DNA from: an uncultured Actinomycetes bacterium
GTDB lineage: Bacteria > Actinomycetota > Thermoleophilia > Solirubrobacterales > 70-9
Assembly (NCBI GenBank): GCA_963744725.1
Contig: CAVUUQ010000002.1
Span: forward strand, 760,541-824,540
Reading direction: 5' to 3'
DNA length: 64,000 nucleotides
Shown: piece by piece, positions 499 through 22,595 of the stretch
Layout of the letters: each line of letters begins with the position of its first letter
Numbering within the stretch: position 1 is the stretch's first letter
Notes under the pieces: model-generated
Seen by the model: the letters and a program-made list of their open reading frames with translations, nothing else
What the model was told of the DNA's origin: nothing
Databases searched by the model: none
Translations under genes and position numbers: made by a program

Positions 499-618
499 AG
501 CGGCTGCGGTCGGAAAACGGCAGGGTGGCAAGAACGCTTCGGGCACTGAGCGGCAATCAGCGCCGCCGCAGCGCGTCCAGGCTGCGAGACTCGGCGCCGG
601 AATGCGGGTTGGAGGAAC

Positions 619-1842: not shown

Positions 1843-1876
1843 CCGGAGGCCCTAGCGTGCTCCGATTTCTCTTGGC

Positions 1877-2172
1877 TTACGGACGGCGAAAGATGGCGTG
1901 GGTGCCGACTCGCCGCCAGATGACGTGAGGCTCGCCCGGGTTTACCTCCGCGCCATATTCGAACGTCGCCCGGCCGTCGTAGGCCCAGGTCATCTCCCAG
2001 ACCCCAGGATGCCCCTGCACCCGCTTGACGCGGAGCTTGGGATGGAATGCCTGGGCACCCCGGCGAGGTCGGCGATGAACTGCGCCACCGCAGCGCGGAA
2101 TTCCCGCTGCTGCTTGGGGCTCAGCCGATCCCAGTCGCGCCAGAACGACGCGAGCACTTCACGCGTCGGCAT
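1877..2172 (-). pseudogene. RelE/ParE-superfamily-like toxin, frameshifted (copy A)
   Basis: Starts MPTREVLASFWRDWDRLSPKQQREFRAAVAQFIADLAG, then loses frame near 2057-2063 through a 1-nt deletion relative to copy B. The correct C-terminus EYGAEVNPGEPHVIWRRVGTHAIFRRP* is readable in another frame and ends at 1877. Confidence 0.6.
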
Positions 2173-2418
2173 CGAGCGGCTTCGTGCGCTCGTCCAACGC
2201 GGCCAAGAAATCCTCGTCGTTCTCGAACCGGGTCACTCGACCGGCAGCAAGATCTCGTCAGCCTCGCGCTCGCGCTGCTGCCATTCCTGGGTCCAGAACC
2301 ATGCCTGCTCGGGGTCGATCCTGCCGTCGGTGATCTCCTTAAGCAGGATCACGGCACCATCGACTGCTCCGTCGGGGAGCCGGTCGACGAGGTCGTGAAG
2401 GTCAGCCTTGGTCACCAT
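2159..2418 (-). pseudogene. Putative antitoxin, frameshifted (copy A)
   Basis: MVTKADLHDLVDRLPDGAVDGAVILLKEITDGRIDPEQAWFWTQEWQQREREADE, then a premature stop. Copy B continues DLVAGRVTRFENDDDFLAALDERTKPLDADA. A 1-nt deletion near 2251-2256 explains the difference. Confidence 0.55.
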
Positions 2419-2453
2419 CCGGATTCTGACAGCCGCGAAGGGTGTTCACCAGC

Positions 2454-2641
2454 TCACGCTGCATCCTCGTCCGCTCCCGGATCTTCCAAAAATGCGTCAA
2501 GTAGAGCGGCGCCTTCCGGCTCGGTCCCCGGCATCAGGTGCCCGTAGAGGTCGAAGGTGACCGTGATCGAGGCGTGCCCTGGGCAGATGCGCCCGAAAGC
2601 ACCGTGGCGGATCCGCAGGATGCGAGGTCGGGGCGTCCGGC
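2454..2641 (-). pseudogene. Tyrosine recombinase (phage-type integrase) C-terminal remnant
   Basis: Reads ...LRIRHGAFG..GHASITVTFDLYGHLMPGTEPEGAALLDAFLEDPGADEDAA*, which resembles the conserved RH...LGHxSxxxTxxxYxH C-terminus with the catalytic Tyr. It is cut off at the IS630 insertion point and the spacing is shortened. Confidence 0.5.
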
Positions 2642-3694
2642 TAGTGACCTGAGTCATTGATCCGCTGGCAGTAGGAGGCGAGGCTCTCGAGAATCTCATC
2701 GGCGCTCTTGTGCCAGACGTAGGGCTTGGGGTTCGTCGTTCCAGTTGGCGATCCAGGTGCGGATCGAGGCGACCAGGTCGCGGACCGAGCGGTGGGCGCC
2801 CCGCTTGATCCACTTCGTGGTCAGCTCCGCGAACCAGCGCTCGACCAGATTCAGCCAGGAGCTGTAGGTCGGGCGTGAAATGCAGGGTGAAGCGTGGATG
2901 GCGCAAGAGCCAGCGTTGGATCTGCGGCGTCTCGTGGGTCGAGGAGTTGTCGAGCACGACGTGGACGTCGAGGTGCGTCTGGCACCGAGCGCTCGATCAG
3001 GCCCAAGAAACGACGGAACTCCTCGGCGCGGTGGCGGGGCGTCATCTCGGCGATCACCTTGCCGGAGGCGACGTCAAGCGCGGCGTAGAGGTTGGTGGTG
3101 CCGTTGCGGACGTAGTCGTGGGTCTGGCGCTCGGGGATCCCGGGCATCAGCGGCAGGATCGGCGCTGAGCGCTCGAGCGCCTGGATCTGGGACTTCTCAT
3201 CGACGCAGAGCACGACCGCGGCTTCGGGCGGGTTGAGGTAGAGCCCGACGATATCTCTCACCTTGTAGACGAACTGCGGGTCGGGCGAGAGCTTGAAGTG
3301 CTCTGAACAGATGGGGCTTCAGCCCGAACGCCCTCCAGATCCGGCTGACCGCGGTCTGGCTCATCCCGGTCTGGGTGGCCATCGATCTGGTCGACCAGTG
3401 GGTGGCGTTCGGCGGGCTCTCCTCGAAGGTCTTGACGATCACCCGCTCGATGTCTTCGTCGCCGATCTGGCGCGGCTTGCCGGGCCGCGGCTCGTCATGG
3501 AGACCGTCGAGGCCGCGCTCGGCGAAGCGGCCACGCCAGCGCCCGACGGTCGAGCGAGTGCAGCCAAGCCGAGCCGCGATCTCCTTGCTCGGCTCGCCCT
3601 CGGCCGCTGCCAGCACGATCCGGCAGCGCAGGCGAGGGCCTGGGCGCTGGTCGGGCGCCGAGCCCATCGCTCGAGCACCTCCCGCTCATCCTCG
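2641..3694 (-). pseudogene. IS630-family DDE transposase, multiply frameshifted and interrupted by IS21
   Basis: Pieces lie in three frames: the HTH part CRIVLAAAEGEPSKEIAARLGCTRSTVGRWRGRF, then VLCVDEKSQIQALER...THDYVRNGTTNLYAALDVASGKV, then LDNSSTHETPQIQRWL and PKPYVWHKSADEILESLASYCQRINDSGH*. The first ~11 codons (MPRRVDVELSE) lie at 5946-5913, on the far side of the IS21. The stop codon uses the flanking TA. Confidence 0.8.
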
Positions 3695-3822
3695 TGTAGG
3701 CGCCGCCTGAAAACTGACCCCCTCTCGCCGGTCGAAAACCGACCCCCCACCGACGGCGGCGAGAGCGTCCGGGGGGATGCAGAGCCTCGGCTCGACCGAA
3801 GAGGACGAGCCGGGAGGAAGGC

Positions 3823-5025
3823 GTGGTCGACGTGGAGCAGTGGGCGCAGATCAGGCGGATGCATGTGGTCGACGGGGTCTCGATCAAGGAGATCGCCAGG
3901 AGGACCGGGCTCGCGCGGAACACGGTCCGCGCGGCGGTCCGCTCCGAGGGGCCGCCGCGGTATGAGCGTGGGCCGCGGCCCTCCAAGCTCGACCCCTTCA
4001 AGGAGGAGATCGAGCGCCTGCTGCGCGCCGACCACCGGCTGCCCGGCACCCGCGTCCGCGAGCTGATCGCCGAGCTCGGCTACGAGGGCGGCAAGACGAT
4101 CCTCGACGACCACCTGCGCGAGGTCCGCCCGCGATTCATCCCGAGGCGCACCTATCAGCGCACCGTCTACCGGCCCGGCGAGATCTGTCAGTTCGACCTC
4201 TGGGAGCCCAAGGTTGAGATCCCGGTCGGCCACGGCCAGACCCGCCGCGCCTGGGTGGTCACGAGCGCCCTTGGGTGGTCGCGCGCCGGCGCCGGGGCGC
4301 TGATCTTCGCCAGGCAGGCCCCCGACATCCTCTGGGGAATGGGGCGGTGCCTGACGAGGTTGGGCGCCCTGCCCGAGACCGTGGTCTGGGACCGCGAGGC
4401 GGCGATCGCCCCGCGGGGGAGGCCGACCGACGCCTTCGCCGCCTTCTGCGGGGGGCTGCCTGTCGGCTGGTCGATCTGCGAGGCGGCCGACCCCGAGTCG
4501 AAGGGCGTGCTCGAGCGCAGCCACCGCTTCCTGCGCTCGAACTTCGAGCCGGGCCGTGCCTTCGCCTCGCCCGGGCACTTCCAGGGAGAGCTCGATGCCT
4601 GGTTCGAGAAGGCGAATCGTCGCCTGCACCGCGGCATCCGCGCGATCCCGGCCGAGCGCCTGGCCGAGGAGCGGGAGCGGATGCGCCCGCTGCCGGGTCG
4701 GATGCCCGAGACCGACCGCCGCTTCGTCACCCGCGTGCCCCAGCAGCCATATCTGCGCCTCGACACCAACGACTACTCGCTCGACCCGAGGGCGGCGGGG
4801 AGGCGGGTGGAGGTCAGGGCCTCCCAGCGCGAGATCACGGCGATCGAGCTGGGCACCGGCGCCCTCGTCGCCTCCCACCGCCGCTCCTTCGCCAGGGGCC
4901 TGACCTTCACCGACCCCGCCCACCAGGCCCTCCTCGACCGGTTGCGCGGCGAGCGCCGCCGCGGACCCCGGGTCGAGGTCGAGACCCGACCGCTCGCCCG
5001 CTACGACGAGCTGATCCCGGCATGA
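3823..5025 (+). CDS. istA: IS21 transposase IstA
   Basis: 400 aa with a GTG start. An N-terminal HTH (VSIKEIARRTGLARNTVR) and a DDE core (QFDLWEP...VVWDREAA...PESKGVLERSH) are typical of IstA. The stop overlaps the istB start (ATGA). Confidence 0.9.
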   Translation: MVDVEQWAQIRRMHVVDGVSIKEIARRTGLARNTVRAAVRSEGPPRYERGPRPSKLDPFKEEIERLLRADHRLPGTRVRELIAELGYEGGKTILDDHLREVRPRFIPRRTYQRTVYRPGEICQFDLWEPKVEIPVGHGQTRRAWVVTSALGWSRAGAGALIFARQAPDILWGMGRCLTRLGALPETVVWDREAAIAPRGRPTDAFAAFCGGLPVGWSICEAADPESKGVLERSHRFLRSNFEPGRAFASPGHFQGELDAWFEKANRRLHRGIRAIPAERLAEERERMRPLPGRMPETDRRFVTRVPQQPYLRLDTNDYSLDPRAAGRRVEVRASQREITAIELGTGALVASHRRSFARGLTFTDPAHQALLDRLRGERRRGPRVEVETRPLARYDELIPA

Positions 5026-5780
5026 CGAAGAGCGCCGAGCTCGCCCACCTCTTCCGCGCCCTGAAGGCGCCGGCCGCGGCACGGGCCGTGCCGAAGCTGG
5101 CCGAGCGGGCACGGGAGGAGGAGTGGTCGCACGAGCGCTTCCTCGAGGCCGTGCTCTCGACCGAGGTCGCCTCGCGCGAGAGCCACGGCGGCGAGAACCG
5201 GATCAAGGCGGCCCGCTTCCCGGCAAGGAAGACGCTGGAGGAGTTCGACTTCACCTTCCAGCGGTCGGTGAAGAAGCAGGTGGTCGAGCACCTGGGCCAG
5301 CTCGACTTCCTGCACGGTCGCGAGAACGTGGTGCTGCTCGGGCCGCCCGGGACGGGGAAGACGCACCTGGCGATCGCGATCGGCATCCGCGCCTGCCTGG
5401 CAGGGCAACGCGTCGCCTTCGCCACCGCGACCGAGTGGGTTGCCCGCCTCGGCGAGGCCAAGCGCCAGGGGGAGTTGGAGGCCGAGCTGCGCCGCCTCTC
5501 CTTCGTGCCGCTGATCGTGGTCGACGAGGTCGGCTACATCCCCTTCGACCCCGAGGCCGCCAACCTGATGTTCAGCCTGGTCTCCGCCAGATACGAGCGG
5601 GCCTCCCTGATCGTCACCTCGAACAAGCCGTTCTCGGCCTGGGGCGAGATCTTCGGCGACGAGGTCGTCGCCGCGGCGATGATCGACCGGCTGGTCCACC
5701 ACGCCGAGATCCTCGCGCTCAAGGGCGACAGCTACCGGCTGCGCGACAAGGACCTGGGTTCCCCACCGCCCCGCGACTGA
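5022..5780 (+). CDS. istB: IS21 helper ATPase IstB
   Basis: 252 aa. Walker A LLGPPGTGKTHLA, Walker B LIVVDEVGY and the IstB signature LIVTSNKPFSAWGEIFGD are present. Confidence 0.9.
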   Translation: MTKSAELAHLFRALKAPAAARAVPKLAERAREEEWSHERFLEAVLSTEVASRESHGGENRIKAARFPARKTLEEFDFTFQRSVKKQVVEHLGQLDFLHGRENVVLLGPPGTGKTHLAIAIGIRACLAGQRVAFATATEWVARLGEAKRQGELEAELRRLSFVPLIVVDEVGYIPFDPEAANLMFSLVSARYERASLIVTSNKPFSAWGEIFGDEVVAAAMIDRLVHHAEILALKGDSYRLRDKDLGSPPPRD

Positions 5781-6350
5781 GCGTTCCCGCCCGCTCCGCC
5801 TCGCCCTCCGGGCTCGGCTCCGCGGGCGGGTCCTCCACCGCCTACCGGGCGCTTTCCAGGGGGGTCAGTTTTAAACCGGCAGAAAGGGGTCAGTTTTCGA
5901 CCGGCGTTGACACCTCGCTGAGCTCGACATCTACACGTCGGGGCATGAGGCCTCCCATCGTCGCCTGTGATGGCGACGACTTCGACGGCCGATCATCTAT
6001 GCCTGCGGACTAACGACTCAGGTCACTAGCACAACGCGAGCATGGCCATAGGGAGCCCATCTCGCGGCGTTGCGGGAACTCCCAGCGCGCGCTCACCCGG
6101 GGCCGTCCTCGGAAAGCAGCGGCCTTCTCTGTCGCCCCATTTCGACTACCTCTCTCGAATTTCGTCACGCCGTAACTCGAGCGGTTTGAGCCTGGCCGCG
6201 ATCGGCGCCCCCATAGGCCAATACAGACGCTCAGGTTGTGCGCCTGCACACTCGCACGCGGCGATTCGGAGCCGAGACGTGAGATCGTGTCCGGTCGCGG
6301 ATTCAGGATGCTTCCCGGATCGTCGAGAGACCTCGCATCCAAGAGGCAAA

Positions 6351-6779
6351 TCAGCAGCGCGCAAAGGAGAGATCCCGTTCGAGCTTCTTGATCGTCTCGG
6401 CAGGCCGGCTCTTCGCGTTTCTCAGGAGGGTTGGCGTGTAGTTCTTCTGATTGAAGGTCGCACCCGCGAAACTGCCGTCGCGCACTACGCGGAGGACAAG
6501 TCGCACTGCGTCACCGCATCCATTCGGCGCTGAGTCGAGCGCTTCCAGTCTTTCCTCGGCAACCACCATTTCTGCGGCGTAGATTTCGTACCTCCGCTGT
6601 ATGTCGAACGGGCTATTGGCCGACTGAATAGATTTCCCCACCCGTTTAGTCGCTTCAATATCTTCTCGCACCTGGAGCGTGAATTGCTGTTTCCACTCTC
6701 TGGGGTCCTCCCTGCTGCTTCCACATGCCGCCAAGAAGATTGCCGCAAGAATTGCGCTGCTAATCAGGATCGCCCGCAT
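6351..6779 (-). CDS. Lipoprotein of unknown function
   Basis: 142 aa. Signal peptide with a lipobox, MRAILISSAILAAIFLAAC|GSS. The DNA is AT-richer than its surroundings. I recognise no family. Confidence 0.55.
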   Translation of the reverse strand: MRAILISSAILAAIFLAACGSSREDPREWKQQFTLQVREDIEATKRVGKSIQSANSPFDIQRRYEIYAAEMVVAEERLEALDSAPNGCGDAVRLVLRVVRDGSFAGATFNQKNYTPTLLRNAKSRPAETIKKLERDLSFARC

Positions 6780-7630
6780 AGCGAAGGACTACCCGTCTGA
6801 TCTCCGTTAAAGCGTGCGCCGCTGACCGGCTCATATCGTCAAAGATGTCTCCATCGCGCAGACCCCTCCTGGAGAGGCCGGATTCCGACCCGGACGGAAC
6901 GAGCTAGACCGTCCACGGCGCGGATACTGCTCGATCCCGCCCTACTCGTCCGGTCCTCGGACCGATGCAGAAGCGCCTAAACGATTCATGGCCGATCGAC
7001 TTCCGGTCGAATCCTTCCCACCGCAGCGGGCGCGGATTCTGAGCTGGGGCTGAGATGGCGCAGACCGCCGAGGTTCGCCGAGGAGATGACCGCGCCCGCC
7101 AGAGGCTCGTGACGACCGCGCGGATTCACGAGTGAGCGCACGCGTTCTCGCGACGCGAAGCGAAACTCGCCCCAGGCCATACCGAGATGCGGTCCATAAG
7201 TTCATCACCCCCTATGAGCGAGACCCAGACGCGCTCGAGCGGGCCTCCGCCGACATCGAGCACGCCGGTCAGCACGCCCCGACGCAGCAGCGGATGTATG
7301 GGAGCAGGCGCGGCTTCGTCAAGACGTTGCCGCTGTGCAGAGGCCCTCGGTGATCGTCGCGCCAGCTGAGCACCCACCCGGATCGGGAGCGCCCTAGGCT
7401 GCTCCCTGCTCTAAACGCACGCCCCGCACCTGCCTCAAATAAGGCGAATTCAGGCGGGCAGACACCGACGATGATCCGGGCCCCGACTCTCAGCGCCCGG
7501 GTCGAGCCGCATCGTAAAAGTCGATCTCCCGAAGCTGTCGTGGATAGTCGTCGAACCGCGCCTCGTCATCCAGCCAAGGAGCAAATTCGTAACCCAGGCT
7601 TTCCGGTTTGGTTAGACTCTCCAGATATAA

Positions 7631-8323
7631 ATGCGCCGTTTACTGACGTTCCTGTTCGCCGCCCTTGCTGCCCTTGCAATTTCCTTGCCAACGGCTCCTG
7701 CATCTGCAGCCAAAGTCGCGGATTCCGTTGTCTCATTCAAGGCAGGAATGGGCGGCTCGAATTTAACTGCATCACCGACACTCTCAGGAGAGATGAGCCA
7801 TATCGGCCCCGTCGATTCTGAGAAGCACATCTTTGCTCATGGAGTCAGCCCGGTAGGGGAACGGTGGGCTGCGTCCGCGGGCGTGTCGAACCGCGGGGAT
7901 CACAAGCGGGAATTTGAGGTTCGCTTTCAGTTCTCGCTCGGCTTTCGATGGGGGATCGAGCAAAACATCCCCAACCGAGGGCGAAAACAAGAGCGAGGTC
8001 AGGCCGACGGCTACACCGGACCATTGTCTGGGGGCGCGCTTGAAAGCGCCGCATTCGGCATAGCAGGACCTGAAGTAGAGACGATCAAGATGAAGATGAG
8101 TGACGACAGTTCGCTCGAAGTGCATCCCACATTTCCACCCATGGCACTTCGCCGGGCTTTCATCTGGATGCGTGGTTTTCGCTACTTTCTCCAATACTAC
8201 CGCGGGGCGGCCTACGTAACTGAATACTGGTTATATGACGCCAATGGGAAGCGGGTTGGTTGTAACAACTACGCTGAAGGATCTCTATCTGCCGCAGTTT
8301 GCGGTTTTAAGCCGGTTACCTAG
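7631..8323 (+). CDS. Secreted protein of unknown function
   Basis: 230 aa. Signal peptide MRRLLTFLFAALAALAISLPTAPASA|AKV. AT-richer codon usage. I recognise no family. Confidence 0.5.
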   Translation: MRRLLTFLFAALAALAISLPTAPASAAKVADSVVSFKAGMGGSNLTASPTLSGEMSHIGPVDSEKHIFAHGVSPVGERWAASAGVSNRGDHKREFEVRFQFSLGFRWGIEQNIPNRGRKQERGQADGYTGPLSGGALESAAFGIAGPEVETIKMKMSDDSSLEVHPTFPPMALRRAFIWMRGFRYFLQYYRGAAYVTEYWLYDANGKRVGCNNYAEGSLSAAVCGFKPVT

Positions 8324-8993
8324 AATCGCATCGAGACCTTCGTTGCGTAGCTTCCCACTGGGTGTGAGCATCTCAAGCGTGACGATTTTGTCCGAGGTCT
8401 ACCGCGAGATGTCCTACACGCATAAGGTTGACCGCGGATGACGGCTGCTCCCTAACAGCCTTATGGGTCTCGCCGGCTGTAGTAGCAGACAACAGCTTGC
8501 AGGCCCTATTGGCTCGCGCGGGGGTCATGCCCACCACCGGCGGGGCGGTGTCGCTGCCCTGCCGTGGTGCTGCTACGGCTTAGACGTACCGGTAGCGTCG
8601 TCGACCGCGAGTACCAGTGGGAGTAGCGGCGCCTCAATGTGGCTCCGCCACTCCCCTTTGAGGGGTTGCAACGACACGCCCGACCAAAGCCGCTTCACCT
8701 GGCATGTAGGCCGGCCTCACGATGTTGCGGGCCCGAGGCGCATGGCCGTCCTCGCTGGCGTTGGTTCCGGTAGGCGAAGGCGATTTTGCTCATCAGCGCC
8801 TCGGGACCGACATCCATCCCAGAAAGGCAAAGGTGTCCTCGGCCATCTAGCGAGCAAAGTTGCAGCTTTGCGAGAGACTGCGGCCGTGGAGAACCTTTCT
8901 AGATCGTTGAGCGGGCTATCCATAGATCCCGGCCAGTCGCCCCGGCCCGCAGTTGGATACCTGCTATCAAAGCCGTTCCAGTGCCAACAGATC

Positions 8994-11900
8994 CTATTGC
9001 GCCCCTCGTAGCTCGTCCACAGCGCCGGGCTTCAGTTTCCATTGGCAAGGGAGCGATTCTTCATCCCTAAGCGGGGCAAGCCAGTGGTAGAAATGCGATC
9101 TTTCCCGAACTATGCGTTCGGCATTTTCTTGTTTCAGAGGATTGACTGGAATGACACCATCTAGCTCTGCACAGATTGCCCTAAGGGGTGCTTTGTCAGC
9201 TTCAAAATCACCGGGTTTCCATCTCCAATCTCCAATGATGTCTAGATGTTCTCTCGAGTGATTGTGGACCACTTCACAGTTTGCATGTACAAGGGGTTCA
9301 CTAGGGCCGCTTTGCCGACAAACAGGTTCATTTTCGGCCTTGACCCAAACTTCTTGGCCCGGACGATAGCTAAACACTCCGGAGGCTGAAACCGCCCAAC
9401 GTAGCGCTGCGTGTGGTGCAACATATTCGTCATATTCCCCATGACACTGTGGCGATTTAATTCCTTTAGCTTCCGTCACTAACAGTTCTCTTGCTTCCCG
9501 TCGAAATTCAGGAACGAATTTTGGGGGTAGTTCGGTACTGGCGTTAAACCCATAACCGCTTGGATCCCACCGACACATGTTGAAATCGTAGGCGCGTTCT
9601 TTTACCCGACTGTGTTTTGGCGAGAAGGCGGGCGCTAGTTCGGATACCTGTTCTTCTTGCTCTTTGCCGAACCTCGTGAGGTTCATGAGAAGGTGTGGTG
9701 CTCTCCTGGGCCCAGTGTCGTTGAGCGTCACGGTCGCAACAGTGGTTTCGCCGGCTTCATTTTCGGTCTCATAGTGCTCTTCAAAGCCGACCAGAACCCG
9801 TGCCGCCCTATCTCGCTGAACTTCACTTGAGTTCAGGGCGCGGTTGTAGACCCGAACGTCGTCGATGCGGCCTTTGAAGCTCGCGCCGAAGACATCGCAG
9901 CCGATCTGCAGCGGCCCTTCGGCCGTCGTCAGGGTTGGGGCGACGTTGGTGCTGTGTTCTTCGTCGCCGAGGGCGCCGTCGACGTAGAGGCGGATGACGT
10001 TGCCGTCGTCGGTCAGAGCGATGTGAGACCAGGCGGGCTCGGGCAGCGGTTCTTCTCCGTAGACGCCGCGGAAGCCTTCGGCGCCGCCTTTGCGCACCCA
10101 AGCCTTCGGAATTTCGTTTTGGCCGGCGAGGAGCTCGTAGGCGTAGGGCTCTTCTTTGCCTGGCGAGTTTTCGTCGGCCATCGAGATCACCGGCAGGGCT
10201 TCTTCTCCCCAGCCCACCGGCCGCACCCAAGCCTCGAGCGTGAATTCTTCGGTCAGTTGCAGGTCTTCGGTGGCGGTGATCGTTACGCAATCTTCTTCGC
10301 CGTCGAACTCGAGCGAGCCGCCGTATTTACCTCTGGCCCATTCGGCGCCTGCGATCGTCCCGGTGTGACCGGCGCCGGTCAGGTCTTCGACCGTGGATCC
10401 TTCGCCTTCGTCGAAGGAGTAAGCAGCGATCGGGCTGCGCTGGGGGGTCTGAATCCCGGTGCTTTCGTTGACCGCCATTTCACCGGGATCGAGCGCTCGG
10501 TTGTAGATCCGCACCTCGTCGATGCGGCCGTCGAAGTAGTCGCCGGTTTCGGTGGAGCCGCCGATCTCGAGGTCGCCTTCCGTGGTGAGGATCGGTTCGG
10601 CTGAGCCGTTGTCGACGAGCTGGCCGTTGACGTAGAGGAAGGTGCGGTTGCCGCCGAAGACCAAGGCGACGTGGCTCCAGGCGTGGGCGTCGAGCGGATC
10701 GTCGGCGTGGATCAGTTCCTGGCCTTCTGCCGCCGCCCCTTCAGGACGGTCGGAGATGGCACCGCCCTCGTAGATCGCGTAGCCGAGCCCGCCTTCGCGC
10801 TGCTTGGCGATCAGCGGCGCTGCTTCGTTTTCGCCGCCGCTCGGGCGGACCCAGGCTTCGAGGGTGAATTCTTCGGTGAAGTCGAGATCAGGCGCGTCGG
10901 GGATCCGCAGCAGGTCTTCTTCGGAGGCGTCGAATTCATAGGCGCCGCCGAAGCGGCCTTTGGCCGTCCAGTTGGCGCCTTCGACCGTCGCCGTGTGGTT
11001 GGCGCCGCTGAGGTCTTCGGCGGTTTCGCCTTCGTCTTTGTCGAAGGAGTACTCGGCGACCGGGCCCTGCTGGGGGGTCTGGATCGGCGCCAGGTCGTTC
11101 TTCACTTCGGCTTCGGAGAGGGCGCGGTTATAGATCCGGGCCTCGTCGATCCGGCCGGTGAACTGGCCGTCGGGGATGTCGCAGCCGATCTTCATCGCGC
11201 CGCTGCCGGTCGCCGGAGAAGTCGGCGCGTATTCGGTGCCGGCCAGTTCGCCGTCGACGTACACGCGCAGGTAGGCGCCGTCGTACGTGGTCGCGATGTG
11301 CTCCCAGGCGTCGGCCCGGAGTTCCGTTTCGCCGATCGCGTACTCGGCTTCCCCGCCTTCGCCGATGAAGCCTTCGGCCTTGTGTTCTTCGCGGGAGCCG
11401 AGACCGAGGCCGTAGGCGAGATCGCCTTCTGATTCCTTGACGATCACCGGGTCGTCGAAGACGCCGCCCTCGGGGCGGACCCAGGCCTCGAGGGTGAATT
11501 CTTCGGAGAGCCGCAGGTCTTCGGCGTCGGCGATGGAGAGGCATTCAGTCCCGCCTTTGCCGTCGAAGCCGATCGCGCCGCCGTACTTGCCCCGCACCCA
11601 GGTACCGGCTTCGATCGTTGCCGGGTGTTCGTTGCCGCTCACGTCTTCGACGGTGGTGTCTTCGCCTTCGCCTTCGTCGAAGGAGTACTCGGCGATCGGT
11701 CCCTGCTGGGGGGTCTGGATCGGGGCGAGCATGTCGGTGCCAATTTCGGTGGGGATCAGGGCGCGGTCGTAGAGGCGCACCTCGTCGATCCGGCCCTTGA
11801 AGGCGTCGTCGGCGCCTTCGAAGATGTCGCCGCCGATCAAGACCGCGCTTTCGCTCGCTTTCGCCAGTGAGGCTGGCTCGGTGCATTTCAGCTGGCCGTC

Positions 11901-13214
11901 GACGTAGAGGCGAAGGAAGGCGCCGTCGAAGCTGAGGGCAAGGTGCGACCAGGCCTTCGCCGGCAGTGGGGCGCCCGGGGAGTTGACCGCGTGGATGCCG
12001 TCGTCGCCTTCGACGAAGCCGGCCGGGCCTTCATCTGCGCCTTCGGCGTGGAGCTGGTAGCTGAGGCCGCCTTCGCGTTCCTTGGTGACGACGGCGCTCC
12101 ATTCGTTTGCTTCGTCGGGCCGCACCCAAGCCTCGAGGGTGAATTCTTCTTCGAAGTCAAAGGCGGGGTCTTCGGGAACCTGGACGAGCGTGCCTTCTTC
12201 GCCGTCGAAGTGGAGGGCCGAGCCGTATTTGCCTTTCGCCCATTCGGCGCCTTCGATGGTGGCGGTGTGTTCGTTGCCTGAGGCGTCGGTGGCGGTGGTG
12301 CCTTCGTCCTCGTCGAAGGCGTAGGCGGCGACCGGGCCGGCGGGCGCGGTTTCGATCGGGGTCGCCATGTCTTCGCCGACTTCTGAGGCATCTAGCGGGC
12401 GGTCGTAGAGGCGAACCTCGTCGATCCGGCCGTCGAAGTATTCGGGGCCGTGTTCGCCGCCGAGGATGTCGGCGCCGATCAGAAGGTCGCCTTCTGAGGT
12501 TTGTACTTCTGAGGCGGGGCCGGTGTCGACCAATTCGCCGTTTACGTAGAGGCGGAGGTGGGCGCCGTCGTCGGTTAAGGCGACGTGGGACCAGGCGTGG
12601 AGGGGAAGGGCGGCGGTGCCGGCGGCGCCTTCTTCGATCCAGGTCTGATTTGAGATATAGCCTTCCGGCACCCCTTTTTCTTTGCCACCGACGTAGAGCG
12701 CGTAGGAGAAGTATTCGTCGGTCTGCTTGGCGATGATCGGGGTCCAGAAGTGTTCTTCGCGGGGGCGGACCCAGGCCTCGAGGGTGAATTCGCCTTCGGT
12801 GAAGCGCAGATCTTCGGAGTCCGGAATCGTTACGACATCGCCGCCTTCTGGGCCGAATTCGAGGGCTCCTCCGTAGCGGCCCTTGACCCGGGTGGCGCCT
12901 TCGATTGTGGCGGTGTGTTCGTTGCCGCTCTCATCTTCGGCGGTATTGCCTTCGGGTTCGTCGAAGGAGTACTCGGCCACCGGGCCTTCGCCGCCGGCGG
13001 CGGCGCGGGCGAGCTCAGGGGCACCACGGGTCCCACCCCCCCAAGGCGCAATCCACACCAGGAGGATCAAGAGCGCTGAAAACAGCAGCACTGCGAGCAC
13101 AGACGAATCGATGCGCCTCCGCAACATTGCAACCCCCTGAAAGAGCCCGGACCGAGACTCGGTGGCGAGAACGGTTAGGAGTCGCCTTTTATTGTGGTCT
13201 TCTCCTTTTGTCAA
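8994..13214 (-). CDS. Giant surface/secreted protein: N-terminal membrane anchor or signal, five LamG (concanavalin-A-like, LamG_3-type) repeats, and a ~280-aa Cys-rich C-terminal domain of unknown family
   Basis: 1406-aa ORF (alternative start M30 at 13127). Hydrophobic segment VLAVLLFSALLILLVWIAPW. Five ~210-aa repeats each contain GP[VI]AxYSFDExEG...SGNEHTATIEG...FTLEAWVRP...AWSH[VLI]AL...LYV[DN]G...GRIDEVR[LI]Y[DN]RAL. The C-terminal ~280 aa (8994-9836) resemble nothing I can name. Confidence 0.85.
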   Translation of the reverse strand: MTKGEDHNKRRLLTVLATESRSGLFQGVAMLRRRIDSSVLAVLLFSALLILLVWIAPWGGGTRGAPELARAAAGGEGPVAEYSFDEPEGNTAEDESGNEHTATIEGATRVKGRYGGALEFGPEGGDVVTIPDSEDLRFTEGEFTLEAWVRPREEHFWTPIIAKQTDEYFSYALYVGGKEKGVPEGYISNQTWIEEGAAGTAALPLHAWSHVALTDDGAHLRLYVNGELVDTGPASEVQTSEGDLLIGADILGGEHGPEYFDGRIDEVRLYDRPLDASEVGEDMATPIETAPAGPVAAYAFDEDEGTTATDASGNEHTATIEGAEWAKGKYGSALHFDGEEGTLVQVPEDPAFDFEEEFTLEAWVRPDEANEWSAVVTKEREGGLSYQLHAEGADEGPAGFVEGDDGIHAVNSPGAPLPAKAWSHLALSFDGAFLRLYVDGQLKCTEPASLAKASESAVLIGGDIFEGADDAFKGRIDEVRLYDRALIPTEIGTDMLAPIQTPQQGPIAEYSFDEGEGEDTTVEDVSGNEHPATIEAGTWVRGKYGGAIGFDGKGGTECLSIADAEDLRLSEEFTLEAWVRPEGGVFDDPVIVKESEGDLAYGLGLGSREEHKAEGFIGEGGEAEYAIGETELRADAWEHIATTYDGAYLRVYVDGELAGTEYAPTSPATGSGAMKIGCDIPDGQFTGRIDEARIYNRALSEAEVKNDLAPIQTPQQGPVAEYSFDKDEGETAEDLSGANHTATVEGANWTAKGRFGGAYEFDASEEDLLRIPDAPDLDFTEEFTLEAWVRPSGGENEAAPLIAKQREGGLGYAIYEGGAISDRPEGAAAEGQELIHADDPLDAHAWSHVALVFGGNRTFLYVNGQLVDNGSAEPILTTEGDLEIGGSTETGDYFDGRIDEVRIYNRALDPGEMAVNESTGIQTPQRSPIAAYSFDEGEGSTVEDLTGAGHTGTIAGAEWARGKYGGSLEFDGEEDCVTITATEDLQLTEEFTLEAWVRPVGWGEEALPVISMADENSPGKEEPYAYELLAGQNEIPKAWVRKGGAEGFRGVYGEEPLPEPAWSHIALTDDGNVIRLYVDGALGDEEHSTNVAPTLTTAEGPLQIGCDVFGASFKGRIDDVRVYNRALNSSEVQRDRAARVLVGFEEHYETENEAGETTVATVTLNDTGPRRAPHLLMNLTRFGKEQEEQVSELAPAFSPKHSRVKERAYDFNMCRWDPSGYGFNASTELPPKFVPEFRREARELLVTEAKGIKSPQCHGEYDEYVAPHAALRWAVSASGVFSYRPGQEVWVKAENEPVCRQSGPSEPLVHANCEVVHNHSREHLDIIGDWRWKPGDFEADKAPLRAICAELDGVIPVNPLKQENAERIVRERSHFYHWLAPLRDEESLPCQWKLKPGAVDELRGAQ
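9837..12986 (-). repeat. Five tandem ~630-bp coding repeats (LamG modules)
   Basis: The protein periodicity is visible directly in the translation. The repeats are diverged but recognisable at DNA level, for example recurring gaattcttcggt / ggcctcgagggtgaattc blocks. Confidence 0.8.
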
Positions 13215-13335
13215 GGAATATGTTTGAGAAGTAGACCTCCACCTGCTAATAAGGCTATCTCTACTGATTTTTAGAGACTGAGGCTCGATCAGATGTCGAT
13301 TGCCCGAATTTGCCTAGGCAGCGGCACTCCGGGCT

Positions 13336-13848
13336 TCAAGCGCCGGGGTCCGCCGCCGCCTCGACCGCGTCGAGCGCCTCTAGGACGGCGTTACCTCGCT
13401 TGCCTCCTAGCCCGTAGAAATGCTCAACCGCGCCACGTCTCCGCTCGGTGCCAACGAGCTCCAGTACCCCGAGCGAGCGGAGTACGCTGAGGTGGTAGGT
13501 GACGTTGGGGAGCCCGTCCGGCAGCGCCTCGTTGAGCGTGACCGGAGAGAGCCCTCGAGCCCCGCGCATCTTCCTGATGATCGAGACGCGGAGAGGATGT
13601 CCGAGCGCACGACCCACCGCTGCCACATCTTCGGCCGAGGGAACTGATTTGACTGTTCGGGGTGCGGCCACGAGCTGACTTGAGACTACGGATCGCCGCG
13701 CCGTCCTGATCCCACTTGGCGCCTGGCTCTCCTTGGCGGCCCAGACAGCCACTGGGCTGCCCGACCGCCGACGCCGTCGCCAGATCGTCGTCCTCTCGCT
13801 CGGGTTCGGAACGATCGGTGCGGCATCTACGGGATCGGCGGTGGTCAT
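13336..13848 (-). CDS. ArsR-like winged-helix transcriptional regulator (start uncertain)
   Basis: The core VAAVGRALGHPLRVSIIRKMRGARGLSPVTLNEALPDGLPNVTYHLSVLRSLGVLELVGTERRRGAVEHFYGL fits the ArsR/SmtB HTH pattern. The N-terminal ~70 aa are low-complexity, so the true start may be internal. Confidence 0.65.
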   Translation of the reverse strand: MTTADPVDAAPIVPNPSERTTIWRRRRRSGSPVAVWAAKESQAPSGIRTARRSVVSSQLVAAPRTVKSVPSAEDVAAVGRALGHPLRVSIIRKMRGARGLSPVTLNEALPDGLPNVTYHLSVLRSLGVLELVGTERRRGAVEHFYGLGGKRGNAVLEALDAVEAAADPGA

Positions 13849-13910
13849 GCCGGATCAGCCCTGTTGCCGAGCAGGTGGATCAACTCGCCGCAGACCTGGC
13901 GGGCACGGGT

Positions 13911-14135
13911 TTACTGCATCAGCCGATCGGCGTCCTCATCGCGACCACGCCGAACGTCCTCGGGCTGGTCGATGCCCTCTTCGGCGCTAACCCTTAGGCG
14001 CCAGAGAGTCTCGGCAAGCTCGTCTTTCGGGACCGTGATGGCGAAGATCTCGCGCCGATCCTCATTTGCGTACCGCTCGGCGGCCTCGAAATCCTCCCGC
14101 TTGATCATCAGCCCGGGGTCAGTGCTCCCGGTCAT
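13911..14135 (-). CDS. Small acidic hypothetical protein
   Basis: 74 aa counted from the internal ATG (MTGSTDPGLMIKREDFEAAERYANEDRREIFAITVPKDELAETLW...). It has the same orientation as the ArsR-like and LamG genes and lies just upstream of them. The call is weak. Confidence 0.3.
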   Translation of the reverse strand: MTGSTDPGLMIKREDFEAAERYANEDRREIFAITVPKDELAETLWRLRVSAEEGIDQPEDVRRGRDEDADRLMQ

Positions 14136-14444
14136 GCGCTGGAGGAGCAGCTGGTGACAGCGCGGCGCGTTCGTTGCGGCCGATCTGAAGCGTGGCGTCC
14201 GACATCGGTTCCCCTTTCGTGGGGGCACCGAAGAGCGGCCCACGGTGTCAGCCCCAGGTCAGGGCGACGGGCAGTACCGTCTCTGTCGGCATCGAAGGAT
14301 CGTTCTTCGGTGCCAGCCCCGGGGGTGTTCCTGCACCTCCGGGGCGCTATGGAATTGTCACGGCGCGGCGACCGTAGCGCCGCCGCGGTGGCGAAGCGAG
14401 TCCGAATCGGCGGTAATCGGCGCCGATCGCCTCATATTGAGGGT

Positions 14445-14468
14445 ATTTCGGGCACTAGTGCCCGAAAT
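14445..14468. repeat. 24-bp perfect palindrome ATTTCGGGCACTAGTGCCCGAAAT
   Basis: Perfect dyad symmetry, flanked by a further inverted pair CCTCATAT (14431-14438) / ATATGAGG (14477-14484). Confidence 0.8.
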
Positions 14469-14533
14469 GGAGGGGATATGAGGGGGTGGTTCGGGATTCC
14501 CTGGCGGGTCGGAAACCCCCGATTAGCAGGGAA

Positions 14534-14563
14534 AGCGGCTGAAGGGATTCGAACCCTCGACCT
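14534..14563 (-). other. tRNA 3'-end-like fragment (T-arm plus acceptor strand), not a complete tRNA
   Basis: The minus strand reads AGGTC-GAGGG-TTCGAAT-CCCTT-CAGCCGC-T. No matching 5' acceptor, D-arm or anticodon stem lies upstream. Confidence 0.55.
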
Positions 14564-14600
14564 TCTGCATGGGCAAGTAAAACGCCAATAGAGGCCGAGC

Positions 14601-14626
14601 GACGGTGGCACAGGCGGTGGCACAAA
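14601..14626 (+). repeat. GACGGTGGCACAGGCGGTGGCACAAA motif, copy 2
   Basis: Matches 442-467 and 14831-14855. It sits 45 bp to the left of the second tRNA-derived repeat. Confidence 0.6.
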
Positions 14627-14671
14627 TTGAGAAAATGGCCTTCCGGAGCGGAACGCGGGCACCCACCCGGC

Positions 14672-14886
14672 GCCTTGAAAGCCGTTAGGCCTTATCCAGG
14701 TCTCGTGGGTTCGAATCCCACCCCCTCCGCTTAGAGGCTCGAATTTGGCTCTAGGGAGCCGTATGCGCAGGGGCTAGGAGGCCGCCGGTCGGTCCGGTTG
14801 TGTCCGGCTGGATCCGGTAGTGAAAGGGCTGACGGTGGCACAGCCGTGGCACAAAACGGCGAGCAAACCCGCATGCCAGGCCGACT
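14672..14886 (+). repeat. Direct repeat copy 2: partial tRNA-Ser (anticodon loop to 3' end, 14672-14731) plus downstream region
   Basis: GCCTTGAAAGCCGTTAGGCCT...GTCTCGTGGGTTCGAATCCCACCCCCTCCGCT, followed by CGAATTTGGCTCTAGGGAGC... as at 292-498. The tRNA 5' half is missing, so this is not a functional gene. Confidence 0.85.
14831..14855 (+). repeat. GACGGTGGCACAGCCGTGGCACAAA motif, copy 3
   Basis: Lies within repeat copy 2. It is one nucleotide shorter than copy 1. Confidence 0.6.
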
Positions 14887-15199
14887 TACGATCGCAACGG
14901 GAATGCGTCAGAGTGGCAAAAGCGCTACGAGCTGCCTGTTGCCGGCACCGAAGTAGGCTCGAACGCGTCTCTTCGATAGTTGCCAGCAGTAACTCGATCG
15001 CTACCGCGAGCAGTGGTCCGGCTGACGCGGTGTGGGAATCTCGACTCCTCTTCGGGGAGCAACGGATCGAGGCCTATTACGCATCACTGGCTTGTGCAGC
15101 GGGCGCCGCCGTCACCCGAGCGCCGGCGACCGCCGCCGGCGGCCGACATAGTCAGGGGGCGCAACCTCGATCGGCTCACGTGGTTGGTTAGACATGCGG

Positions 15200-15534
15200 A
15201 GGGAGCGCCGAGCAATTTGGAGAGTGGGCGGCTACCGCTCGCGCCGCAGCTCATCACTCTCGACAGCGCGGGTCGCGTCGTCGTAGTCGGCACCGTCAAC
15301 GTCGCCTTCGACAAATCCTTGGGGGCGACCGCGGAGCCGGCGGTCACTCGATTGCTCCCGGAAGGCACTCCCGACACGGGTTTCGGCAGCGAAGGTCTTA
15401 CCCTGCTTGAACCGCTTTCCCGCTGGCCCGGCGACGCGACCGGGCTGGTTGACGGGCCAGACGGCTCGATCGTGATCGCGGGCGCGAGCGCGCCGACACT
15501 GGACGGTATTGGAACCAAACGTCGGTTCGCCTGA
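15200..15534 (+). pseudogene. Delta-60-repeat protein fragment (paralog of 619-1842)
   Basis: ...GRVVVVGTVNVAFDKSLGATAEPAVTRLLPEGTPDTGFGSEGLTLL...DGPDGSIVIAG carries the same LLPxGxxDxxFGxxG unit. No signal peptide or credible start is present. The matching 3' tail lies 1.9 kb away at 17404-17510 and is frameshifted. Confidence 0.4.
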
Positions 15535-15661: not shown

Positions 15662-16609
15662 ATGTGCACGGGCATCCGGTTCAGCGACGGGGAGGGCCAT
15701 CTCTACCTGGCGCGCAACCTCGACTGGACGAGCGGCTATGGAGAGCAGGTCGTCATGACGCCTCGGGGGTACGCACCCAAGTCACCGTTCGATGGGGTGG
15801 CCGGCATCCGGCATGCGGTCATCGGAATGGGCATCGTGGAGGAGGACACGCCGCTCTACTTCGACTGCGGCAACGATGCCGGCATCGCCGTGGCGGGCCT
15901 CAACTTCCCGGGGTACGCCGAGTACGCCGCTGAGCCTGCGGAGGGGGCGACCAACGTCGCCGCGTTCGAGTTCCCGCTCTGGGTGGCCTCGCAGTTCGAG
16001 AGCGTCGACGAGGTCGAGGCGGCGCTACGCGATGTCGCCATCGTCGATCAGCCGATTAACGAGAAGTACCCGAGCTCCCTGCTCCATTGGGTCATCGGCG
16101 ACTCGCAGCGCGCGATCGTGGTGGAGTACACCGCCGGCGGCATGCACGTCTTCGACGACGACGTCGACGTCCTCGCCAACCAGCCGGGCTTTTCCTGGCA
16201 CCACGAGAACCTGCGCAACTACCTCAACGTGACGCCGGATTTCCCCGAGGACACCGTGCTCGGCCGAGCGCAGTTGGAGCCCTTCGGCTCGGGGTCGCAC
16301 ATGCGGGGGATCCCGGGGGACTACTACTCACCGTCTCGGTTCGTGCGTGCGGCGTATGTCAACGCCCACTATCCGGAGAAGTCGACCGAGGAAGAGAACG
16401 TCAGTCGTGCGTTCCACACCCTGCAGCAAGTCGCGATGGTGGACGGATGCGCAGCCATGGGCTCGGGCGAGTTCGAGAAGACCATCTACACGGGGCTCTT
16501 CTCGTCCCGCACGAATACCTACTACTGGAACACCTACGAGGATCCGGCCATCCAGAGCGTCGCGATGGCGGACCACTCGCCCGACGGAACGGAGCTTGCC
16601 GTCGTGTAG
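15662..16609 (+). CDS. Choloylglycine hydrolase / penicillin V acylase family (Ntn-hydrolase, linear amide C-N hydrolase)
   Basis: 315 aa starting MCTGIRF, with the nucleophile Cys at position 2 after Met removal. LARNLDW and further family blocks are present. A GGAGG Shine-Dalgarno sequence lies 7 nt upstream. Confidence 0.85.
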   Translation: MCTGIRFSDGEGHLYLARNLDWTSGYGEQVVMTPRGYAPKSPFDGVAGIRHAVIGMGIVEEDTPLYFDCGNDAGIAVAGLNFPGYAEYAAEPAEGATNVAAFEFPLWVASQFESVDEVEAALRDVAIVDQPINEKYPSSLLHWVIGDSQRAIVVEYTAGGMHVFDDDVDVLANQPGFSWHHENLRNYLNVTPDFPEDTVLGRAQLEPFGSGSHMRGIPGDYYSPSRFVRAAYVNAHYPEKSTEEENVSRAFHTLQQVAMVDGCAAMGSGEFEKTIYTGLFSSRTNTYYWNTYEDPAIQSVAMADHSPDGTELAVV

Positions 16610-17146: not shown

Positions 17147-17542
17147 TCCGCCCCTAGCCCGCCGATGGAGTGCTGAACGCCTCCGGCCGCATCCCACAGT
17201 CCCCGCGTCCCCGGCAGCGGACTTCAGCGAACCAATCGGACGATGCATCCGGTACAAATGCCGGTACGACGTGCCCTTGGCGACACATGCTGCACGACCC
17301 CCGCGGGTCTAGCGCCGGGAAGCGTCCCGGGAGCGAAAGAGTCGCGATCATGCCTGGCAGCTGTTCGATTTCCATCGCTTCGATCAGACCGGCTACGCCG
17401 CCTCCCGGAAGAGACCGTCGCCGCCCTGGCAGGCGCGCCGTGTTCCTCGGCAGCGCCGGCAGGCACGGCGGCACCTGGTTGGTGAAGATCCCGCCGCTGC
17501 GCCACTGACCGGGGCGCCCTCGCGGCTCCGGTTCTTTGCGGC

Positions 17543-17837
17543 TTACGGACGGCAAAAGATGGAGTGGGTGCCGACTCGCCGCCAGATGACGTGAGGCTCG
17601 CCCGTTGACCTCAGCGCCGTATTCGAACGTCGCTCGGCCGTCGTAGGCCCAGGTCAGCTCCCAGACTCCGGGATGCCCTCGCACTCGCTTAACGCGGAGC
17701 TTGGGATGGAATGCCTGAGCACCCCCTGCGAGGTCGGCGATGAACTGCGCTACCGCAGCACGAAATTCCCGCTGCTGCTTGGGGCTCAACCGATCCCAGT
17801 CGCGCCAGAACGAGGCGAGCACTTCACGCGTCGGCAT
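17543..17837 (-). pseudogene. RelE/ParE-superfamily-like toxin, frameshifted near the 3' end (copy B)
   Basis: MPTREVLASFWRDWDRLSPKQQREFRAAVAQFIADLAGGAQAFHPKLRVKRVRGHPGVWELTWAYDGRATFEYGAEVN. A 2-nt deletion near 17601-17606, relative to copy A, then causes read-through into the artefactual 227-aa ORF 17154-17837. Confidence 0.55.
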
Positions 17838-18081
17838 CGAGCGGCTTCGTGCGCTCGTCCAACGCGGCCAAGAAATCGTCGTCGTTCTCGAACCGAGTCA
17901 CTCGACCGGCAACAAGATCCTCGTCAGCCTCGCGCTCACGCTGCTGCCATTCCTGAGTCCAGAACCATGCTTGCTCGGGGTCGATCCTGCCATCGGTGAT
18001 CTCCTCAAGCAGAATCACGGCACCATCAACTGCTCCGTCGGGGAGCCGGTCGACAAGGTTATGGAGGTCAGCCTTCGTCAC
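17824..18081 (-). CDS. Putative antitoxin (copy B, apparently intact, GTG start)
   Basis: 85 aa: VTKADLHNLVDRLPDGAVDGAVILLEEITDGRIDPEQAWFWTQEWQQREREADEDLVAGRVTRFENDDDFLAALDERTKPLDADA*. The stop overlaps the toxin start by 14 nt, as is usual for type II TA operons. Confidence 0.5.
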   Translation of the reverse strand: MTKADLHNLVDRLPDGAVDGAVILLEEITDGRIDPEQAWFWTQEWQQREREADEDLVAGRVTRFENDDDFLAALDERTKPLDADA

Positions 18082-18143
18082 ATCCGGATTCTGACAGCCG
18101 CGAACGGTGTTCACCAGCCGGCATCGGAAAGGTGCGCCGTGAT

Positions 18144-22590: not shown

Positions 22591-22595
22591 TTTAG

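Follow-up and report, generated by a model that had tools for sequence, protein, structure and literature searches.

What stands at the C-terminal end of a large repeat protein from an uncultured Solirubrobacterales bacterium, and why does the DNA encoding this end look foreign to the rest of its gene? We addressed these questions for a gene at 8994-13127 on the reverse strand of a 64,000-nucleotide stretch of contig CAVUUQ010000002.1 (the whole stretch is called the window here), which encodes an array of five LamG modules followed by a Cys-rich domain. The gene may encode an exchangeable extracytoplasmic effector accompanied by a cognate exported immunity protein or inhibitor, in the manner of polymorphic toxins, a reading that we prefer but hold tentatively.

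The source record, a contig of 1.46 Mb, calls a 1377-amino-acid (aa) product from ATG 13127, and the mechanical open reading frame (ORF) extends further to TTG 13214 (1406 aa). This 8994-13214 ORF on the reverse strand, from which an earlier reading made from the sequence alone (the sequence-only reading) had started, is present as described. Translation probably starts at ATG 13127, which gives a normal N-terminus consisting of MLRRR and 22 hydrophobic residues; residue numbers refer to the 1406-aa ORF from TTG throughout. A putative signal peptide or signal anchor was read by eye at residues 30-58 (MLRRRIDSSVLAVLLFSALLILLVWIAPW, 13041-13127), and homologs share a similar N-terminal beginning. 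Pfam finds Laminin_G_3 (PF13385) in five stretches at residues 78-1127 (9834-12983), with an E value of 3.5e-147 and 485 bits against a cut-off of 27.6, and no family past residue ~1134; the profile match places the scaffold in the Laminin_G_3 / ConA-like lectin-glucanase superfamily. The sequence-only reading had proposed the same arrangement of an N-terminal anchor or signal and five LamG modules. The fifth module ends in the junction motif GRIDDVRVYNRAL (residues 1115-1127, 9834-9872), where both codon usage and homology break. It is followed by a linker or pre-domain of ~70 aa (residues 1128-1198, 9621-9833), which is common to LamG-type relatives only, and by the core of the Cys-rich C-terminal domain (residues 1199-1400, ~200 aa, 9015-9620), which contains six invariant Cys residues and is predicted to be beta-rich. 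All these features lie on the reverse strand.

Codon usage and alternative tips at the domain junction

The GC content is ~0.65 over the array (9900-12900) and 0.50-0.51 over the tail (9000-9600), in a window with a GC content of 69% over its 64 kb. At the first, second and third codon positions (GC1/GC2/GC3), the values are 0.69/0.47/0.80 in the array and 0.66/0.45/0.42 in the tail core; GC3 is 0.57 in the linker and 0.46 in the whole 280-aa tail. As GC3 drops while GC1 and GC2 are unchanged, the difference is a shift in codon usage and not in amino-acid content. A maximum-likelihood change point of GC3 was found after residue 1128 (2-lnL support 1125-1130, window position ~9830) with a log-likelihood gain of 60.9, and it coincides with the end of RVYNRAL, the closing motif of the last module. 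Elsewhere, GC3 over 200 codons has a minimum of 0.625 and a median of 0.935 (352 segments from the 29 other ORFs of the window). The compositional break is therefore real and far beyond chance, and it takes the form of a step where the fifth LamG module ends. The sequence-only reading had noticed AT-richer C-terminal DNA (about 50% GC) beginning at the domain boundary, and the values along the gene bear this out. Its further statement that the repeat region is as GC-rich as the host has to be corrected, as the array lies below the host median GC3 of 0.92, as does the tip.

The step is not confined to this gene. In locus L002, from an 'uncultured Actinomycetota' metagenome-assembled genome of 77% GC, the flanks have a GC content of 0.75-0.79, the array 0.63-0.67 and the tip 0.50, and nucleotide homology between L002 and the window ends at window positions 9802-9835, which is the junction. 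The tip is the lowest-GC part of the gene in all eleven other readable loci with the Cys-rich tip (ten distinct, as the near-identical L005 and L006 were counted as one locus). The margin is small in L003 (0.61 in the tip against 0.64), and the decrease in GC3 is slight in L003-L008 (0.02-0.08). Genes with other tips behave similarly. GC3 falls from 0.836 to 0.504 in the amidase-tipped L011 (change point 1116, motif end 1116) and from 0.774 to 0.433 in L013, which has a glycoside hydrolase (GH) tip (change point 1088, motif end 1089). In the class-2-tipped L012 it falls from 0.835 to 0.543, with a change point 15 residues past the motif end, which sits at the edge of the support interval. The class-3 loci also have their GC3 change point near the junction motif. 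Tips are AT-richer than their own arrays in every tip class checked, so tip and repeats do not share one composition in the homologs either. The recurrence of the step across loci and tip classes indicates that it is a property of the family's junction rather than of one gene.

To characterize the ends that this scaffold carries, we searched with residues 30-1140 and obtained more than 1000 proteins at E<1e-30, of which only a few are named, as 'LamG domain-containing protein [Solirubrobacterales bacterium]'. Identity between the window protein and the scaffold homologs is 41-59% over the array. The tails of the 118 top scaffold homologs were cut after the last LamG end motif and clustered, giving at least five tail classes plus singletons on a homologous scaffold. 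A TIM-barrel resembling GH clan A (PF11790, 26.7 bits; WEIWNEPN...WVTELGFPV) ends 41 of the 118 proteins, followed by an unassigned small Cys/FN3-like type (27), the Cys-rich domain under study (15, the window included), Peptidase_A4 (13) and Amidase_6 (8), and by one pair and singletons (11). One singleton contains RHS repeats and, as judged by eye, a trypsin-like end. These numbers answer the question of whether the Cys-rich tail is invariably attached to the array: it occurs on only 15 of the 118 homologs, and other ends occur on the rest. In all of them, the tails diverge right after ...[ND]RAL. We note that the end motif, GRIDxVRxYxRAL, closes every LamG module and not just the last one, and it would therefore be a ready homology patch for recombination.

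The Cys-rich domain and its downstream partners

The sequence-only reading had counted 8 Cys residues in the tail; the count is 6. Word-indexed searches with the tail and with a 32-member profile yielded a single relative besides a 100% identical fragment (P0001), and the family was recovered by an exhaustive phmmer search over 1.84 billion cluster representatives. It comprises 35 representatives among these 1.84 billion proteins, with E values down to 3e-51, and the match lies at the extreme C-terminus in 35/35 proteins. By these searches, the Cys-rich tail domain is a rare, previously undescribed family of its own. In a 32-member alignment (A1), six Cys residues and one Gly are invariant, and R9, F13, W75, Y85, P99, P109, G155, P158 and H176 are nearly so. 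Two loops between Cys pairs vary greatly in length, with large insertions and deletions. The six invariant Cys residues would form three disulfides, which suggests that the domain acts outside the cytoplasm.

No Pfam match was found for any of the 32 family members, and the tail has no match in NCBIfam, PADLOC or PHROGs; the family profile likewise found no match among PDB sequences. The ~280-aa C-terminal domain that the sequence-only reading could not place thus stays without an assignment in these databases. AlphaFold2 with alignment A1 gave a beta-rich model with a mean predicted local distance difference test (pLDDT) score of 78.6 and a predicted template modelling score of 0.72. The core of the model has pLDDT values above 90 (101 residues at 90 or more), and the low-confidence regions coincide with the two variable loops. 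A Foldseek search with this model found no match (best E 0.42 in PDB, with a template modelling score of ~0.2, and 0.37 in BFVD). Within PDB and BFVD, the confident model does not correspond to a housekeeping fold or a carbohydrate-binding module (CBM), and the tail may represent an undescribed, candidate new fold. Two enzymatic assignments of the motifs RAY, SASG, HLD and H176 were considered, to an ADP-ribosyltransferase (R / S-x-S / E-x-E) and to a 2-His-1-carboxylate site (HxD...H), and both were rejected because the 32 members do not conserve these positions. A variable region of the diversity-generating retroelement type was not supported either, as the tip DNA is not repeated in the window.

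The Cys-rich domain is found on several kinds of scaffold. It ends five-LamG arrays (P0004, P0022 and L002), NHL-propeller/Big_13 giants of 1200-2000 aa (P0005, P0011 and others), a Big_13 and Big_3_3 protein of the immunoglobulin (Ig)-like type with two LamG modules (P0032), and a 551-aa protein without any known domain (L003). Smaller tail alignments, used to find loci, led to one genome locus and six metagenome loci. At 12 of the 12 distinct homolog loci with a Cys-rich tip that were examined from DNA or gene calls, a small exported-type protein is encoded directly downstream on the same strand. These partners have 130-240 aa and begin with a predicted signal peptide, lipobox or transmembrane (TM) segment, the lipobox or TM-like N-terminus being found on the partners of L005, L009 and L015. 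The partner gene overlaps the end of the tip gene in three loci (L004, L008 and L016); most others start within ~100 bp of the tip stop, and the one in L002 starts after 150 bp.

The partners fall into four sequence families, a to d, without a match in Pfam, NCBIfam, PADLOC or PHROGs. Type a is found in L008. Type b is found in L004, L005/L006, L007, L009, L010 and L016, and probably in the P0121 locus; type c in L002 and L003, and probably in the P0036 contig (a 133-aa downstream gene, from gene calls); and type d in L015, with an uncalled copy in L014. Profile-profile comparison gave no link of type c to the other types, and a single-sequence model of a partner reached a pLDDT of 36. Partner identity follows tip identity and is slightly lower in 8 of 9 pairs, as in those where tip and partner share 69/59, 57/45 and 36/34%. 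Tip and partner are also found together on unrelated scaffolds: P0003 (LamG) and L003 (non-LamG) share 45% identity in the tip and 48% in the partner, and P0004 (LamG) and L004 (NHL) share 34% and 30%. The co-divergence of tip and partner, together with their joint occurrence on unrelated scaffolds, indicates that they behave as a two-gene module.

In the window, the sole partner homolog is a 230-aa protein encoded at 7631-8323 on the forward strand, convergent with the LamG gene. It has a predicted signal peptide (...APASA/AK) and a GC3 of 0.58, and it is of type a, with 27% identity over 139 aa to the L008 partner (E 4e-15). A six-frame hidden Markov model search of the window found no partner of type b or c and no orphan C-domain fragment, and tblastn with the L002 partner found no match in the window. 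The spacer between the two genes (8324-8993, GC 0.60-0.64) contains no credible ORF, repeat or terminator. The sequence-only reading had described this interval (8330-8990) as essentially ORF-free and had stated that no immunity-like ORF follows; this is right for the strand of the LamG gene, where small ORFs and orphan C-terminal cassettes were sought and not found, and it missed the partner homolog on the opposite strand.

Downstream genes of other tip classes were inspected in single loci. The amidase-tipped gene is followed by a 58-aa ORF, and the GH-tipped gene by a DUF5122 propeller (L013, 7890-9317). In L012, 72 bp after the class-2 tip (P0042), a 242-aa protein without a signal or family is encoded at 7227-7955 on the forward strand (GC 0.545); this protein may be the cytoplasmic equivalent of the exported partners.

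Surroundings of the gene

A tRNA-Ser(TGA) gene and the left copy (287-495) of a ~210-bp direct repeat are found at 262-495 on the forward strand; the tRNA gene spans 262-351 and the repeat starts in its anticodon loop. The right copy, at 14668-14883 on the forward strand, contains the 3' half of the tRNA-Ser and ~150 bp more, and is 86% identical. The two copies bracket a segment of ~14.4 kb that contains the LamG gene. Such an arrangement, with a tRNA gene at one boundary and its 3' part repeated at the opposite one, is a feature of tRNA-associated integrative islands. If the 'tRNA island' of the sequence-only reading is taken to mean a cluster of tRNA genes, it does not apply, as the window has one tRNA, the 3' half of which is repeated at 14668. 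The bracketed segment contains a DUF5122 propeller gene, an IS630-like DDE_3 fragment (2851-3261, reverse strand), an apparently intact IS21-family istA (400 aa) and istB (252 aa) pair (3823-5780, forward strand, GC3 0.95), a lipoprotein ORF, the partner homolog, the LamG gene, an ArsR-like gene and a 74-aa acidic ORF. No integrase or recombinase gene was found in it other than istA/istB and the IS630-like fragment, and these elements lie 3-6 kb downstream of the LamG gene.

Upstream of the LamG gene, the sequence-only reading had named an ArsR-like regulator and a small acidic ORF. Both are present on the reverse strand, an ArsR/SmtB-like helix-turn-helix regulator at 13336-13848 and the 74-aa acidic ORF, without an assigned function, at 13911-14135. 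The ArsR-like ORF has 170 aa in the window and in the related metagenome contig L001; the source record calls only a 77-aa product, and the long Arg/Ser-rich N-terminal part may not be translated. As neither gene is conserved in the homolog loci, we leave both out of the proposed system. The lipoprotein ORF (6351-6779, reverse strand, which is the strand of the LamG gene) encodes 142 aa with a lipoprotein-type signal (LAACGSS) and has a GC3 of 0.66; it has no family match and no homolog in the other loci. DUF5122 beta-propellers recur beside LamG-array genes, as in L013 and at the left end of the segment in the window (619-1842). Another direct repeat (1736-2453 and 17403-18118, 92% identical), together with a DUF5122-like fragment (14980-15534), points to a duplication of the whole left flank, with the tRNA 3' half, the propeller gene and a 166-aa ORF, to the right of the LamG segment. 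A gene for a choloylglycine hydrolase or penicillin V acylase (15662-16609) lies within this right flank copy. Further to the right, the window contains a c-di-AMP riboswitch (ydaO/yuaA leader, RF00379) at 22450-22592 on the forward strand (69.7 bits against a gathering score of 38), and, near its right end, two diverged direct repeats ~5.7 kb apart (57782-58234 and 63519-63971, 72%; 57510-57581 and 63250-63321, 86%).

L001 (ENA ERZ25039475 contig_39065) has 14,250 bp and is a circular permutation of window 498-14691. At its junction (~2249-2255), the anticodon-loop core GCCTTGAAAGCCGTT is joined directly to window position ~496, and ~185 bp of the repeat are missing; L001 may represent an excised circle or a tandem copy, or it may have arisen in the assembly. 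The two sequences are 100% identical over ~7400-9845 (partner homolog, spacer, tip and linker), 99-100% identical over 12600-13800 and 98.7% in the next 300 bp. They are also 99-100% identical over the IS21 element (3600-5780) and 90-94% over the IS630-like fragment. The array interior (9846-~12590), in comparison, is only 75-82% identical. Both breakpoints fall within motifs that LamG modules conserve, WSHVALT... in LamG1 and RVYNRAL in LamG5, and the first difference falls within the RVYNRAL codons. The array may have been swapped through recombination with a paralog, or its L001 version, which is full of frameshifts, may be a poor consensus; on both options, the junction motif is where the histories of the window and L001 part.

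Some homolog loci adjoin VirD4/VirB4-like genes and EccE, or a SIR2-HerA pair. At the P0121 locus (JGI 3300056388), in L009 (4144-4704) and in L010 (3304-3996), class-3 LamG genes adjoin a gene for a VirD4/TraG-like coupling protein of type IV secretion systems and an EccE-like gene, with apparent VirB4-like fragments, judged by eye, that are 93% identical between L009 and L010. These neighbours suggest that class-3 LamG genes are carried on conjugative elements. In L003, a SIR2-like and HerA-like pair, which is a known anti-phage pair, lies at 9081-12085 on the reverse strand, 2.5 kb from the module of C-domain and partner. With the IS21 element, the IS630-like fragment and the tRNA-half repeats in the window, and secretion-type or SIR2-HerA genes near homologs, the context of the system is mobile.

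Function of the C-terminal cassette

In the mechanism that we prefer, the product would be a Sec-exported, probably cell-associated protein, on which a stalk of five ConA-like (LamG) modules displays an exchangeable C-terminal cassette. The cassette would start directly after the end motif of the last module, G-R-I-D-x-V-R-x-Y-x-R-A-L, and would consist here of the linker and the beta-rich domain stapled by its predicted disulfides. The domain may act beyond the cytoplasm, on another cell or on a polymer, and a small exported cognate protein, usually encoded directly downstream, would bind or neutralise it. We prefer this effector/immunity model because it jointly explains why tip and partner genes are adjacent, coupled and co-diverging, why there is more than one partner family, and how the compositional signature arose. 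The composition of tip and partner departs from that of the core, GC3 being 0.80 for the array but 0.42 for the tip and 0.58 for the partner homolog of the window, and the homolog loci deviate likewise. Rhs elements show a similar loss of GC across their C-terminal and immunity-encoding part. For contact-dependent inhibition loci of Pseudomonas aeruginosa, an abrupt drop in GC over the corresponding region has been described (PMC4725963).

Several observations speak against this model. The commonest alternative tips are ordinary-looking exo-hydrolases, so that 'toxin' is not established. The GH and amidase loci (one each) have no partner-like downstream gene, so that antagonism may not extend to the whole scaffold family. 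Tip polymorphism is established on the LamG scaffold only. The domain has few conserved polar residues beyond its Cys residues (R9, Y85, H176 and D/N127), and alignment A1 contains no recognisable catalytic motif. Pfam found no known polymorphic toxin motif and no known pre-toxin or trafficking domains (type V, VI or VII secretion, LXG or PAAR) in the LamG protein or its immediate neighbours, and the only export feature of the protein is its Sec-type N-terminus. The partner homolog in the window is encoded by the opposite strand and lies 670 bp away from the LamG stop. By tree, the window tip groups with type-c-partnered tips, yet the homolog is of type a, and the profile link between types a and b is marginal (hhalign E 0.009). 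As the tip clusters with type-c loci and the window has no type-c homolog, the role of the 7631-8323 product as the cognate partner is plausible but not secure. The sequence-only reading had likened the gene to polymorphic toxins and cassette-swapped adhesins. The conserved scaffold, the swapped tips and the AT-rich tip agree with this likeness, and the toxin part of it remains conjectural.

The main rival is an adhesin or recognition tip, that is, a non-enzymatic, disulfide-stabilised binding module with hypervariable loops, placed distally on a lectin-like stalk, whose partner would be a ligand, a co-receptor or an assembly factor; the pair would then serve kin recognition or adhesion and not killing. 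Conservation in the domain is nearly only structural (the six Cys residues, Gly, Pro and aromatics), and the inter-Cys loops with their large insertions and deletions are also where the model has low confidence. Scaffolds of the LamG, NHL and Ig types are typical of adhesins, and the partner co-diverges with the tip. However, hydrolases otherwise fill the same scaffold position, Foldseek against PDB and BFVD found no lectin, CBM or Ig-like fold, and a gene so tightly coupled in translation to that of a small exported protein would more usually belong to an effector/inhibitor pair; we take the adhesin tip seriously and think it unlikely. Those hydrolases, which end 62 of the 118 scaffold homologs, could instead mean that the domain is a new extracellular enzyme for polymer degradation, with the LamG arrays as substrate-binding modules and the partner as a maturation factor or inhibitor of the foldase or staphostatin kind. 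We regard this as improbable, as the domain has no conserved catalytic constellation (the His residues of QCHG and HLD are not conserved) and its model shows no structural similarity to any enzyme in PDB by Foldseek. The lipobox or TM-like N-termini of three partners and the co-divergence of tip-partner pairs would also fit a docking module, in which the C-domain would attach the distal end of the protein to a surface-bound partner, as cohesin and dockerin do, and pairs would diversify for specificity. This seems quite improbable to us: the window partner and the type-c partners have cleavable AxA-type signals and would be released, enzymes rather than anchors occupy this position in paralogs, and Pfam found no dockerin or cohesin match in tail members or partners.

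Two further explanations concern the compositional break itself. GC-biased gene conversion among the LamG modules could have raised the GC3 of the array, leaving the tip with the lower GC3 of a young or mobile gene. Array and tip are both below the host median, and the array interior differs by ~20% from L001 between an identical tip and identical flanks, as expected if the array recombines. However, the break is a step within ~5 codons and not a gradient, tip-partner pairs are found on unrelated scaffolds, the downstream partner gene is also low in GC3, and the L001 array with its many frameshifts may be a poor long-read consensus; gene conversion is in our judgement a rather unlikely cause. 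An assembly chimera of paralogs that share LamG motifs would place breakpoints in repeated motifs, as seen in L001, which has a different array between identical flanks. The window gene, however, is an intact 1377-aa ORF on its large contig, and the fusion of the array to the Cys-rich domain is found in at least 14 independent proteins, which makes a chimera hardly credible.

If the effector/immunity model is correct, the system would work like the Rhs/CdiA toxins and the envelope effector/immunity pairs, by analogy and not as a filed member of either. The polymorphic toxin framework, reportedly set out by Zhang et al. in 2012, covers Rhs/YD-repeat and CdiA toxins with adjacent immunity genes. 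As in those systems, there is a large exported repeat protein, the tip and a small neighbouring gene are AT-richer than the core, and mobile elements adjoin. The variable C-terminal domain starts after a conserved motif, though here one that closes every LamG module, and the putative cognate gene is directly downstream in the homolog loci, though not in the window. Unlike them, the repeats here are LamG (ConA-like) and not RHS or FHA, the junction motif is RxYxRAL and not PxxxxDPxGL or VENN, many GH, peptidase and amidase tips occur on the scaffold, the tip would be a new fold with three predicted disulfides, and the partner in the window is inverted. Amidase Tae/Tai pairs of type VI secretion systems are envelope-acting interbacterial effectors with exported immunity proteins. 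They resemble the present pairs in the proposed extracytoplasmic action, in a cognate protein with a signal peptide or lipobox and in rapid parallel divergence; delivery here would differ, by Sec export on a stalk of a presumably monoderm actinobacterium, and there is no sequence or fold relationship. The GH clan-A-like (PF11790), Peptidase_A4 and Amidase_6 ends and the N-terminal signal peptide also recall multimodular secreted hydrolases with ConA-like or CBM arrays, which usually have neither a codon-usage step at the catalytic module nor a co-diverging exported partner gene. The annotated 'LamG domain-containing' proteins of Solirubrobacterales (PF13385) belong to the same scaffold family, and their annotation is silent on C-terminal modules, junction and partners. 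In a literature search, no paper dealt with LamG arrays of Solirubrobacterales, and 'polymorphic toxin' with LamG gave only a Rickettsia paper (as preprint and published version) that uses each term once.

Taken more broadly, and with more doubt than assurance, these comparisons may point to an undescribed polymorphic effector system in Solirubrobacterales and related Actinomycetota. In it, Sec-exported LamG-array proteins and NHL/Ig giants would swap cassettes at RxYxRAL, one cassette would be a new-fold, three-disulfide extracytoplasmic toxin with at least four families of rapidly evolving exported immunity proteins, and the two-gene module would be mobile between scaffolds. Even on more modest readings, the codon-usage step at the domain junction is a sequence-only signature by which exchangeable modules can be sought in high-GC genomes. 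The ~200-aa domain, confidently modelled and unmatched in PDB, is a candidate for a new fold, and the tip-partner pairs are a ready set for studies of protein-protein co-evolution. If true, the finding would concern an abundant, almost uncultured soil lineage in which nothing is known of interbacterial or antifungal antagonism, and it would enlarge the repertoire of polymorphic effector systems by LamG arrays as a delivery scaffold, by another junction motif, and by a novel effector fold with several novel partner families.

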